A stretch of DNA of 64,000 nucleotides from an uncultured Pelagibacteraceae bacterium. GTDB lineage: Bacteria; Pseudomonadota; Alphaproteobacteria; Pelagibacterales; Pelagibacteraceae. The translations under genes and the position numbers were made by a program. The notes under the pieces are model-generated. The model saw nothing but the letters and a program-made list of their open reading frames with translations, did no database searches and had not been told where the DNA came from. Below, one piece after another: positions 52,234-58,576 of the stretch. Every line of letters begins with the position of its first letter. The first letter of the stretch is position 1. The stretch covers positions 41,077 through 105,076 of the forward strand of contig CACBMY010000001.1 in assembly GCA_902540545.1 (NCBI GenBank), given 5' to 3'.

Positions 52234-52395
52234 CAAATATTTATATTTATATTGTAAAATTTATGCTAACCTTAGATGATATAAATTGAAAATGAGAACT
52301 TTTTTCTATCTGATTCGGACTAGTTTTAGTCTATTTTTGTTCTTTTTGAGTAACAAAATATAGTAGGCTCAAAAAAGATCATACTAAAAGTTGAT

Positions 52396-55301: not shown

Positions 55302-55624
55302 CTTACTTGGTAAATGAGAAATGTATAAAATGTAAGCACACTACATGTGTGGATGTTTGTCCAGTTGATTGTTTTTATGAGGGCAAAAATATGCTTGTAA
55401 TTAAACCTGATGAGTGTATAGATTGTGGCGTTTGCGAGCCTGAGTGTCCAATTGATGCTATAGTTTCAGATACTGAACCAGGTAGTGAAAAATGGTTAGA
55501 AATAAACAAAAAATATTCTGAGATATGGCCAAATATCTCAGAAATAAAAGATCCTATGCCTGACCATGAAAGATTTAAAGATGAAGAAAATAAATTTGAT
55601 AAATACTTTAAAGAAAACTTTTAA
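55298..55624 (+). CDS. fdxA: Ferredoxin, FdxA type
   Basis: [18 protein letters not shown] and [12 protein letters not shown]. Confidence 0.95.
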
Positions 55625-56444
55625 AACTAAAAAAAGTGTTAATAAAAAAAAGAAAATCAAAAATATTTCTAAACAAAAAAAAATAAAAAAAATTGCAAAG
55701 ATAAAAAAATCAGATTCACTTAATAAAATAAAAAAAATCACACAAAAAAAAAACGTTAAATCATCACCAAAAACAAAGAATATAAAATCAGAAAAAAAGG
55801 AGTCAGCAGACAATAATAACTTACTTCGTATTCCAAAAAATAATGAACAAAAACCTGAAATTAAAAAAGTAAAAAAACAAGATACTGAGAAAAAAGAGTA
55901 TAAAATAAAAGACTACGTTGTTTATCCTAAACATGGAGTGGGACAGATTACTGAATTTAAAAAAATGAATATAGGTGGAATTGACATTGAGGCATATATT
56001 TTAAAATTTGAGAAAGATAAAGCTAACGGGATGGTGCCAGTAAATAAACAATCTCATCTAAGACCACTTGCAACAATTAACCAAATAAATAAATGTATGA
56101 GTATATTAAAAAGCAAGCCAAAAATTAAAAGAAGCATGTGGAGCAGAAGAGCTCAAGAATATGAAGCGAAAATTTCATCAGGTAAAATTTATGAACTAGC
56201 AGAAGTAGTAAGAGACCTAAACAAAGGAGATGATCTTATGGTAGATCAATCTTACAGTGAAAGGCAACTTTTTGAAAAAGCGTATGATAGAATACTTACG
56301 GAGTTTCAAATTGTTTTAAATATAAGTTTAGAGGATACACAAAAAAAATTAGATAAAGCTTTAAAACGGAACCTTGAAAAGCAAATTCAGAAAATTGAAA
56401 GCAAATCAACTGAAGAAGAGGTATCAGAGGATATTGCTAAATAA
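55566..56444 (+). CDS. carD: CarD/CdnL-family RNA polymerase-binding regulator with Lys-rich N-terminal extension
   Basis: [39 protein letters not shown]; start uncertain (55566 or 55581). Confidence 0.92.
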
Positions 56445-56480
56445 AAAAACGCTCCCCACGCAAGCGCCATGAGAAGCGTT
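56443..56480 (-). terminator. Intrinsic terminator of the basic micro-gene
   Basis: Minus strand AACGCTTCTCATG-GCGCTTG-CGTGGGGAGCGTT followed by TTTTT; 13-bp stem with three G-U pairs that are mismatches on the plus strand. Confidence 0.85.
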
Positions 56481-56502
56481 ATTTAATAAAAAGAATACTA
56501 AA

Positions 56503-56586
56503 CTATTTTCTTCTTTTCTTCTTAGCTTTTTTCTTAGCTTTTTTCTTAGTTTTCTTTTTAGCAGCTTTTTTTCTTCTTTTAGCCAT
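56503..56586 (-). CDS. 27-aa Lys/Arg/Ala-rich basic peptide (histone H1-tail/protamine-like composition)
   Basis: Read by hand: MAKRRKKAAKKKTKKKAKKKAKKKRRK-stop; SD AAAGGGAG upstream; promoter and terminator flank it. Confidence 0.85.
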   Translation of the reverse strand: MAKRRKKAAKKKTKKKAKKKAKKKRRK

Positions 56587-56602
56587 CTTTAGCTCCCTTT
56601 TT

Positions 56603-56633
56603 TAATTACGAATCTTTTTGATTCGTTTAATTA
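56603..56633 (-). promoter_or_regulatory. 5' leader hairpin of the micro-gene
   Basis: ACGAATC-N5-GATTCGT (56608-56626), extended by TAATT/AATTA; lies between the predicted start site and the SD. Confidence 0.6.
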
Positions 56634-56637
56634 CCTT

Positions 56638-56666
56638 TTTGTAATTTTTTTGAATAGTTATGTCAA
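56638..56666 (-). promoter_or_regulatory. Sigma70-type promoter of the micro-gene
   Basis: Minus strand TTGACA-17 nt-TACAAA. Confidence 0.7.
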
Positions 56667-56771: not shown

Positions 56772-58481
56772 TTAATTGTAAAGATTTTCAAAATTATTTT
56801 TATATTTATTTATAATTTTATATCTTTTTAACTTTAATGTCGGTGTTAGCATTCCATTTTCAATTGAAAATTTTTCATTTATTAAAAAAAACTTTTTTAT
56901 ATTTTCAATTTTTGAAAGGTTTTTATTCAAACTATTTATTGCATTATGAATTTTTTCATTTGTAATATTACTGTATTCGTCATTTAAAACTATTAGAGCT
57001 ACTAAATATGGTTTATTATCTCCATACACCACCGCTTGATCTATGAATTCTAAATTTACTAATTCATTTTCAATTTTTAATGGAGAAATATTATCTCCTC
57101 CAGGAGTAATGAGAATATCTTTTTTTCTATCAGTGATTTTTAAAAAATTATTTTCAAATACACCAATATCTCCTGTGTGAAGCCAGCCATCTATCAGAAC
57201 TTTATCAGTTTCTTCTTTATTATTCCAATAGCCCAACATAACATTTTCACCTTTAACAAGTATTTCACCATCTTCAGCTATTTTGACCTTATTTCCCTTA
57301 AACGGTGGGCCAACAGTGTCTATTCTAATATCGTCTATTGGATTACAGCTAACAACTGGGGATGTCTCAGTTAGGCCATATCCTTGAAGAGTTGGTAAAC
57401 CAATCGCATTTAAAAAATATCCAACCTCTTTGTCCAAAGCACCTCCACCAGAAACAAATGTTTTGAGAGAACCACCGAATTGTGATTTTATTTTTTTTCT
57501 TACTAATTTCTCAAGAATGTTATCTTGTAGTTTCTCAAAAAAAGTTAAATTTTCTTTTTTTATTTTTTTTAGACCTATGTCTAACATTTTATATATTAAT
57601 TTTTTTTTCAATCCTGTCGCTTTTTTAAAACTTGCATTAATTTTTTGATAAAGGTTTTGGTAAAATCTTGGTACAGCAGTCATAATTTCTGGTGAACAAT
57701 CACCCATATTCTTAACTAATTTGTCGATACTCTCAGCATAAAAAATTCTAGCTGCTACAGTGATTTGTACAAATTGGACGGTGTGCTCGTAAGAATGTGA
57801 AAGTGGAAGCCAAGTAAGAAACTTGGGTTGTTGTTTAGTTAATAATGGTTTTAGAATATCTATTGCGCCCTCGCAATTATTTAATATGCCTCCATGACTT
57901 AAAATAACTCCCTTAGGATTTCCTTGAGTACCTGAAGTATAAATTATGCAAGATGGATCTTTTCTTAAGGCTAAAGATTTTTGAATTGGTAAATTTTTTT
58001 TATTATTATTTTTTTCTAAGTCTTCTAAATTAATATAATCAAATTCAACATTTGGTAATTTTTCAAAGGAAAATATTTTTTTGATAAATTTTTTGTCCTT
58101 AATAATGTTTTTTAATTTATTGAATTGTCCAATATTTGAAACAAAAATTATACTTGGAGTGCAATCATTGATAATATAATTATAGTCATTTTCTGCATAA
58201 GTTGTGTAAGCTGGAACAGTTATCCCATCTGATAGCATAATAGACAAATCTGCAATAAACCATTCTGGTCTATTTTCAGAAATTAATAAACATCTATCAC
58301 CTTTTGATATTACTTTTCTTAATTCATTGGAAACTAAATTAATAAAATCGTAGGTTTCTTGCCAAGAGTAATTTTTTCTTTTATCACCTAAAGTTGATAA
58401 TAAAATTTTATTTTTATCAATTTGTTTATTAAATTGATAAAAAAATAATTCAGTTAAGTTACTAATTTGTTTTAAGTCCAT
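56772..58481 (-). CDS. Long-chain fatty acid-CoA ligase (FadD15/ACSL type)
   Basis: IYTSGTQGNPKGV, LPLSHSYE, SGGGAL, QGYGLTE, GWLHTGD, DRKKD; likely start MDLKQ at 58481, because the track start lies inside the tRNA. Confidence 0.92.
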   Translation of the reverse strand: MDLKQISNLTELFFYQFNKQIDKNKILLSTLGDKRKNYSWQETYDFINLVSNELRKVISKGDRCLLISENRPEWFIADLSIMLSDGITVPAYTTYAENDYNYIINDCTPSIIFVSNIGQFNKLKNIIKDKKFIKKIFSFEKLPNVEFDYINLEDLEKNNNKKNLPIQKSLALRKDPSCIIYTSGTQGNPKGVILSHGGILNNCEGAIDILKPLLTKQQPKFLTWLPLSHSYEHTVQFVQITVAARIFYAESIDKLVKNMGDCSPEIMTAVPRFYQNLYQKINASFKKATGLKKKLIYKMLDIGLKKIKKENLTFFEKLQDNILEKLVRKKIKSQFGGSLKTFVSGGGALDKEVGYFLNAIGLPTLQGYGLTETSPVVSCNPIDDIRIDTVGPPFKGNKVKIAEDGEILVKGENVMLGYWNNKEETDKVLIDGWLHTGDIGVFENNFLKITDRKKDILITPGGDNISPLKIENELVNLEFIDQAVVYGDNKPYLVALIVLNDEYSNITNEKIHNAINSLNKNLSKIENIKKFFLINEKFSIENGMLTPTLKLKRYKIINKYKNNFENLYN

Positions 58482-58489
58482 ATATTTTT

Positions 58490-58576
58490 TGGTGGGCAAA
58501 GAGAGAATCGAACTCTCACAGTATTGCTACTATTGGATTTTGAGTCCAACGCGTCTACCAGTTCCGCCATTCGCCC
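58490..58576 (-). tRNA. tRNA-Leu(CAA)
   Basis: Reverse complement GGGCGAA...TTGGA-CTCAAAA-TCCAA, variable arm, GTTCGATTC, TTTGCCCACCA. Confidence 0.95.

Follow-up and report, generated by a model that had tools for sequence, protein, structure and literature searches.

Does the short interval opposite carD in SAR11 genomes, where an array of expression signals surrounds a minute open reading frame (ORF) that has never been called as a gene, encode a protein, and if so, what might such a protein do? We addressed this question in a 64,000-nucleotide stretch of DNA (the window) from a Pelagibacteraceae (SAR11) genome whose assembly comprises 816 kb and is 67% complete. A sequence-only reading had placed a micro-gene on the minus strand, with a -35 element, a -10 element, a hairpin, a Shine-Dalgarno (SD) sequence, an ORF, and a terminator, and all of these were found where it had put them and in that order, between a fadD-like ligase gene and the convergent carD (Table 1). 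Its remark that few genes are equally equipped also held, as a GGAG SD combined with TTGACA within 130 nt was detected for only 1 of the 816 ORFs of at least 100 aa in the assembly. An Rfam scan of the window returned tRNAs only.

Table 1. Features of the micro-gene locus (positions in the window)
Feature	Position	Strand	Remarks
carD/cdnL	55566-56444	+	PF02559, PF21095; convergent neighbor of the micro-gene
Intrinsic terminator and U-tract	56441-56480	-	hairpin 56448-56480
Lys/Arg/Ala polycationic microprotein gene, 27 aa	56503-56586	-	84-nt ORF
18-nt complement of the rhtB RNA (RF01814) core	56580-56597	-	SD, spacer, AUG, codon 2
Shine-Dalgarno GGGAG	56593-56597	-	
5' leader RNA hairpin	56608-56626	-	kept in every lineage, with differing 3' arms
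Second GANTC site, AGATTCG	56609-56615	-	TGATTCG in many relatives; forms the 3' arm of the leader hairpin
CGAATCA (TGATTCG on the other strand), CcrM GANTC site	56619-56625	-	~+7 to +13
Putative -10 element TACAAA, without -7 T	56638-56643	-	predicted transcription start site (TSS) ~56631
Sigma70 -35 element TTGACA	56661-56666	-	17-nt spacer to the -10 element
AMP-binding (fadD-like) acyl-CoA ligase	56772-58499	-	upstream neighbor; synteny kept in Pelagibacteraceae

The neighboring CarD protein carries a Lys-rich N-terminal extension of ~110 aa (55566-55895, plus strand) that begins within the ferredoxin gene, as well as an acidic C-terminal tail. An N-terminal extension of similar kind occurs in the sister family.

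Coding potential and orthologues of the micro-gene

The micro-gene product comprises 27 aa (16 K, 5 A, 4 R, 1 T, and 1 M); ~74% of the codons specify Lys or Arg, and the peptide has a charge of about +20. Its composition and mass (3.28 kDa, or 3.15 kDa without Met) are as had been claimed, and with a longest tryptic peptide of 3 aa it would indeed be invisible to tryptic proteomics. We scanned the 816-kb assembly for ATG-initiated ORFs of 15 to 70 aa in which K+R make up at least 55% and no more than one residue is acidic, and recovered only the micro-gene and one other locus. The latter, located outside the window (C3:27837, minus strand), is a basic micro-ORF, also of 27 aa and with an SD, that includes G, Y, P, H, S, and N and could encode a small ribosome-associated protein.

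The ORF is widely conserved. Contig ends truncate 5 of 110 carD loci. The ORF is intact and convergent on carD in 104 of the 105 readable relatives and frameshifted in 1. This exception, in a complete genome (L086; NZ_CP172844.1), has a 1-nt deletion in an A-run that may be a homopolymer/sequencing error or a real loss. As predicted for the region downstream of carD in SAR11, the frame, SD, and terminator are conserved and the repeat number is variable. The SD and start pattern was detected, essentially in single copy, in 125 of 140 Pelagibacteraceae genomes from five genera, and synteny is maintained in the genera other than Pelagibacter. None of our conclusions depends on the unpublished genome G266. 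No viral copy was found in IMG/VR, where the nine matches are unrelated sequences with a similar ribosome-binding site (RBS). These viral contigs (L282 to L290) have 16 to 18 nt in common with the RBS, mostly before unrelated genes, three of them capsid-like, and the resemblance is probably due to chance.

The pattern of variation is that of a protein-coding gene. ORF lengths in Pelagibacteraceae range from 21 to 50 aa in whole-codon steps, whereas length changes in the flanking leader fall in all three phases. Because the gene is built of slippage-prone A-runs, these whole-codon steps count in favor of coding. A frame-blind length test made 10 off-frame calls, of which 9 were anchor artefacts in intact ORFs and 1, that in L086, was real. 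Within the 27-aa class there are 16 DNA alleles, and AAA/AAG changes, Lys/Arg exchanges, and TAG/TAA stops account for all differences among them; the wider set of alleles varies additionally at Ala and Thr third positions. The short forms contain only K, A, R, T, P, and S plus one G and one V, and the C terminus is Arg-rich in nearly all alleles. Thus, frame, start, stop, and SD are conserved, silent or conservative change dominates, and selection acts on the frame. We conclude that 56503-56586 (minus strand) almost certainly encodes a real protein, which is presumably transcribed and translated. A noncoding RNA or repeat with an incidental ORF would suit the low-complexity sequence, the lack of any gene call, and the one frameshifted copy, but is very improbable given the silent-site variation, the K/R and TAG/TAA exchanges, the length steps of whole codons, and the conserved SD.

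The gene has so far been overlooked. In strain HTCC1062, its copy, at 410,512-410,601, lies within a 356-bp interval (410316-410671) given as intergenic (PMC2704228). An exact look-up of five peptide variants found none in a collection of 15 billion proteins, and neither the 27-aa form nor an 85-aa form (see below) matched any Pfam or NCBIfam family at an E value of ≤1 or any PDB entry. The gene is not described in the literature searched on SAR11 small proteins and psRNAs; coverage of ocean psRNAs in that search was partial, and the gene may have been detected earlier as an unnamed transcript.

A longer orthologue is present in the sister family within Pelagibacterales, where a gene of 76 to 91 aa occupies the same place and orientation in 8/8 readable loci. 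KKAAP-type repeats make up the encoded protein apart from a short cap at its N terminus. The -35 element and the CGAATC of the micro-gene recur at this locus, together with an SD and a terminator. Seven of the eight loci (L111 to L120) have a tRNA gene immediately 5' of the long orthologue, and in L111 rpoH follows. A homologue search with the 85-aa form returned two low-complexity matches only. In the Atlas this form falls in unnamed clusters, and the nearest named cluster has HC2 on 23% of its members, a link that we treat as a lead only. A search of 28 carD loci from non-SAR11 Alphaproteobacteria found no such ORF downstream of carD. The H1-like character that the sequence-only reading had seen in the 27-mer gains support from these longer KKAAP-repeat orthologues. 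Based on sequence and position, the 27-mer may be placed at the short extreme of a family of H1-tail-like polycations that spans the order and is encoded opposite carD in both families examined; one orthologous locus displays an H1-like tail that ranges from ~90 to 21 residues.

Promoter, GcrA/CcrM-type box, and RNA structures

The -35 element reads TTGAC followed by A or T in 128/128 distinct upstream regions, and the -10 element is mostly TAAAAA (76/128) or TACAAA (29/128). The promoter had been described as complete, which stands for the -35 element, kept in all 128 regions, and fails for TACAAA, which lacks the -7 T and was missed by a promoter scan. Promoters of Alphaproteobacteria often lack this T, and its absence marks CarD-activated promoters (PMC7703639); so common a trait provides no special evidence for a link to the adjacent carD.

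The sequence CGAATC is invariant in the same 128 regions, 38 to 42 nt after the -35 element, and is kept also in those genera whose leader hairpin leaves its first bases unpaired. Read on the opposite strand, the site gives TGATTCG, the highest-ranking consensus for GcrA (PMC4647560). GcrA/CcrM boxes act between +5 and +30 (PMC9976885), and GANTC is methylated in Pelagibacter (PMC9516812). The micro-gene has a YGAKTCK box within this range, its two GANTC sites lying at ~+10 and ~+20, counted from a predicted start. A gene for GcrA is present in 5/5 genomes, and all complete genomes (4/4) have one for a CcrM-type methyltransferase, with NCBIfam scores below the cutoff on partial sequences; no such methyltransferase was found in the present partial assembly (67% complete). 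TGATTCG occurs 13 times in the assembly and 6 of the occurrences are intergenic (binomial P ~0.001 excluding the micro-gene site).

Two other intergenic or upstream sites deserve mention. A second intergenic TGATTCG (52311-52317), 85 nt before the helicase start, lies between a divergent acetoacetyl-CoA-synthetase-like gene and the helicase-ferredoxin-carD run. Elsewhere in the assembly, outside the window, TGATTCG precedes an ORF by 39 nt (C26:1914). The N terminus of this ORF looks like that of RecA, and the ORF may belong to a GcrA regulon of SAR11.

The arrangement resembles GcrA/CcrM promoters of Caulobacter, such as PmipZ, in having YGAKTCG-type boxes between +5 and +30 (PMC4647560, PMC9976885), with two boxes in most Pelagibacter and both GcrA and CcrM encoded. 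It differs in that the micro-gene boxes also form an RNA hairpin, that the TSS is a predicted one, and that the GcrA consensus is not derived from SAR11. From this combination of motif, position, and gene content, we consider the GcrA box to be probably functional, and the micro-gene would then be under GcrA control.

The leader RNA (56580-56640) folds with a predicted energy of -11.8 kcal/mol (z = -4.4), and all 80 distinct leaders fold at -4.4 kcal/mol or better. G-U pairs and replacement of the 3' arm in these leaders indicate that the hairpin is under RNA-level selection. At the other end of the gene, the terminator has a z score of -3.7 on the micro-gene strand versus -1.7 on the carD strand. 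The sequence-only reading had held that this structure does not serve carD. It is indeed weaker on the carD strand here (-6.5 versus -17.1 kcal/mol), but the terminator is often bidirectional in relatives, and a carD-strand hairpin of -10 kcal/mol or better with a U-tract was predicted in 26 of 61 distinct relatives.

Complementarity of the initiation region to the rhtB RNA

The rhtB RNA motif (RF01814) was published in 2009 by Meyer et al. without a target or function, its hairpin being reported also before proC, livM, and livK (PMC2704228). No target or function was given in the papers since 2009 that we searched. Based on the published alignment and Rfam RF01814, the core of this RNA is the exact reverse complement of 56597-56580. 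The sequence-only reading had noted neither this complementarity nor the invariant CGAATC. The RNA in relatives is RF01814 itself, with scores of 73 to 90 bits in five relatives versus a cutoff of 55; what differs from the published motif is that here its conserved core exactly complements the initiation region of the micro-gene. In the HTCC1062 genome the 18-mer occurs at two places only, the micro-gene RBS and the rhtB RNA at 1,297,616-1,297,698, and this RBS is the second-best genome match of the RF01814 model. A search of the present assembly for complements of at least 14 nt to the rhtB RNA gave the RBS alone. The predicted duplexes have energies of about -39 to -46 kcal/mol, compared with -16 to -18 kcal/mol for the fold of the RNA itself.

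The complementarity is thus unique over 18 nt, and it is codistributed with the rhtB RNA. Of 100 near-complete Pelagibacter genomes, 93 carry one copy of the RNA core, and a search of 31 genomes from other genera did not detect it; nor was the RNA found in the present assembly, which is 67% complete. The 11 nt preceding the AUG are identical in 121/122 Pelagibacter loci, with a G-U pair retained in the exception, and the 8 nt upstream of them take 22 forms. In other genera, in which the RNA was not found, the spacer between SD and AUG varies freely. The flanks of the core vary with codon-2 type. In Pro2 genomes, which have one C-C mismatch, the RNA has the flank that extends pairing in 52/52 cases (a hand count over lineages that are not independent), and the short-pairing flank occurs only in Ala2 genomes (18/22, likewise a hand count over nonindependent lineages, with an invariant core).

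The relatives therefore have a separately encoded RNA loop that is complementary to an initiation region, with specificity and codistribution, as expected of antisense control. Judging from these sequences, the rhtB RNA very probably pairs with the initiation region of the micro-gene. We infer that such pairing takes place in vivo and, since the RNA usually lies just upstream of rhtB, also infer the direction of control. Hfq was not found in the five genomes checked, which fits a long, perfect RNA pairing.

In 28 of 31 loci the hairpin immediately precedes the rhtB start, usually by 10 to 20 nt, and in the remaining 3 it stands before other genes; the RNA may accordingly be a cis leader rather than a free small RNA. 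The rhtB start follows the hairpin without an SD. A conserved TAATGC and an extended -10-like element are present just upstream of the rhtB RNA in the loci compared (L227 and L232 to L261), and a divergent gene for a 98-aa hypothetical protein is located at the other side in all of them.

Possible function of the peptide

An unstructured peptide with a charge of about +20 and a freely varying repeat number can act by charge only. Our preferred reading, to which we assign a probability of about 55%, is that it would be an unstructured, nucleoid-coating polycation whose translation is restrained by an antisense RNA, analogous to Hc1 and IhtA without homology to them. A stand-alone gene of ~190 nt would give rise to the peptide, which would most likely act by its charge, coating and compacting the nucleoid. 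Transcription would probably depend on an activator, as suggested by the weak -10 element and the GcrA/CcrM box just 3' of the start, and this dependence would link expression of the micro-gene with growth and S phase. Translation would be limited, in Pelagibacter, by the rhtB hairpin RNA, which is encoded at a separate locus and would pair over the SD and AUG without Hfq. DNA, as part of the nucleoid, is favored as the main ligand, at slightly better than even odds, given long forms that resemble H1 tails, a box of the GcrA type, the Hc1 parallel, and the failure to detect GapR in three complete Pelagibacteraceae genomes. By a rough estimate, ~13,000 copies (<0.1 fg) would neutralize a tenth of the phosphates of a 1.3-Mb chromosome.

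Hc1 (HctA) compacts the chromosome of Chlamydia and is lethal in Escherichia coli without the small RNA IhtA, which blocks its translation by pairing over the start codon (PMC4355289). Compared by sequence alone, the two systems are alike in a very basic, H1-like product and a trans-encoded RNA loop over the start codon (PMC4355289). Unlike Hc1, to which no homology was found, the SAR11 peptide of 21 to 50 aa is a pure tail, and whereas the complementarity of IhtA covers ~7 nt around the AUG without the SD, that of the rhtB RNA covers 18 perfect nt including the SD. Additionally, SAR11 bacteria are free-living oligotrophs with no known developmental cycle. By analogy, the micro-gene may act like Hc1 under IhtA control; in the literature searched, neither the gene nor the rhtB RNA target has been described.

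Other Lys/Ala(/Pro) repeat proteins, namely, Hc2 (HctB, PF07382), AlgP, and PhaF, resemble the sister-family orthologue with its KKAAP repeats. Repeat number varies between strains in Hc2-type repeats (PMC2848022), and Lys/Ala-rich repeats with strain-variable copy number, a trait of chlamydial Hc1 and Hc2, were also found here. Hc2 differs in its length of 165 to 237 aa and AlgP and PhaF in their folded domains, and the SAR11 forms have no Pfam match. Membership in the Hc1, Hc2, or H1 families was rejected, as there was no sequence or profile match. Specifically, a linker histone H1 was discounted, as there is no globular winged-helix domain in 27 aa made up of K, R, A, T, and M only.

The same gene and control could instead serve a peptide that binds mainly RNA or ribosomes and perhaps makes up for the lack of Hfq, acting as a polyamine-like counterion, an RNA chaperone, or a translation modulator. 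Since polycations bind any polyanion, the precedents of PhaF, whose KPAA repeats bind RNA and activate translation (PMC12818456), and of AlgP, which acts on polyphosphate, weigh against a DNA-specific reading. Hc1 also binds RNA (PMC4355289), and the apparent lack of Hfq and the Arg-rich C terminus would suit an RNA ligand. Set against this, although indirectly, are the GcrA-type box, which points to a replication-linked regulon that includes chromosome organization (PMC4647560), and the resemblance of the long orthologues to H1 C-terminal tails. We view binding mainly to RNA or ribosomes as the strongest rival, less likely than DNA coating but plausible.

Another possibility is that the mRNA itself is the regulator, pairing in trans with the leader hairpin of rhtB, which encodes a LysE-type exporter. 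The transcript would serve as an amino acid sensor in which ribosome occupancy on Lys and Arg codons gates the pairing, and the peptide would be secondary. Both the position of the hairpin directly 5' of most rhtB starts, with no SD after it, and the richness of the ORF in Lys and Arg codons are consistent with such a role. However, the hairpin also precedes other genes, among them proC, livM, and livK in the original description (PMC2704228), the micro-gene is kept in genera where the RNA was not found, and the extension to 91 aa with Ala/Pro spacers would be unnecessary for an attenuator. We therefore regard this scheme as improbable.

The small ribosomal proteins eL41, bS22/mS38, and bS31 are tiny, K/R-rich, and of fixed length, with conserved nonbasic residues. 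The sequence-only reading had entertained a site-specific protein of this type, for which size and basic composition speak, but the micro-gene product gains and loses repeats (21 to 91 aa), has neither a conserved nonbasic residue nor a conserved hydrophobic or aromatic anchor, matches no Pfam, NCBIfam, or PDB entry, and is encoded outside any ribosomal operon, all of which makes a ribosomal protein very unlikely. Least likely is an AlgP-like binder of polyphosphate granules, also raised earlier: AlgP acts on such granules (PMC9239181) and PPK1 is present in the one sister-family genome checked, which bears the long form, but three complete Pelagibacteraceae genomes with the micro-gene yielded neither PPK1 nor PPK2.

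Returning to the nucleoid-coating polycation, we tentatively propose, as a possibility that we hold well short of even odds, that the locus is an overlooked core chromatin module of SAR11, in which a minimal histone-tail polycation of 21 to 50 residues would be under methylation-sensitive GcrA control and throttled by the rhtB RNA independently of Hfq. Even in SAR11, the standard example of a streamlined genome, a gene present almost everywhere was missed, and an Rfam RNA with no function in the papers since 2009 that we searched gains a precise, testable target. The parts are small (a 3-kDa synthetic peptide and a 50-nt RNA), making each step cheap to test. The micro-gene is a candidate for DNA packaging and RNA-level regulation in cells without detectable GapR or Hfq. 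If the chromatin module is real, SAR11 would have arrived convergently at an Hc1/IhtA-like switch that compacts the nucleoid of a streamlined, free-living cell.
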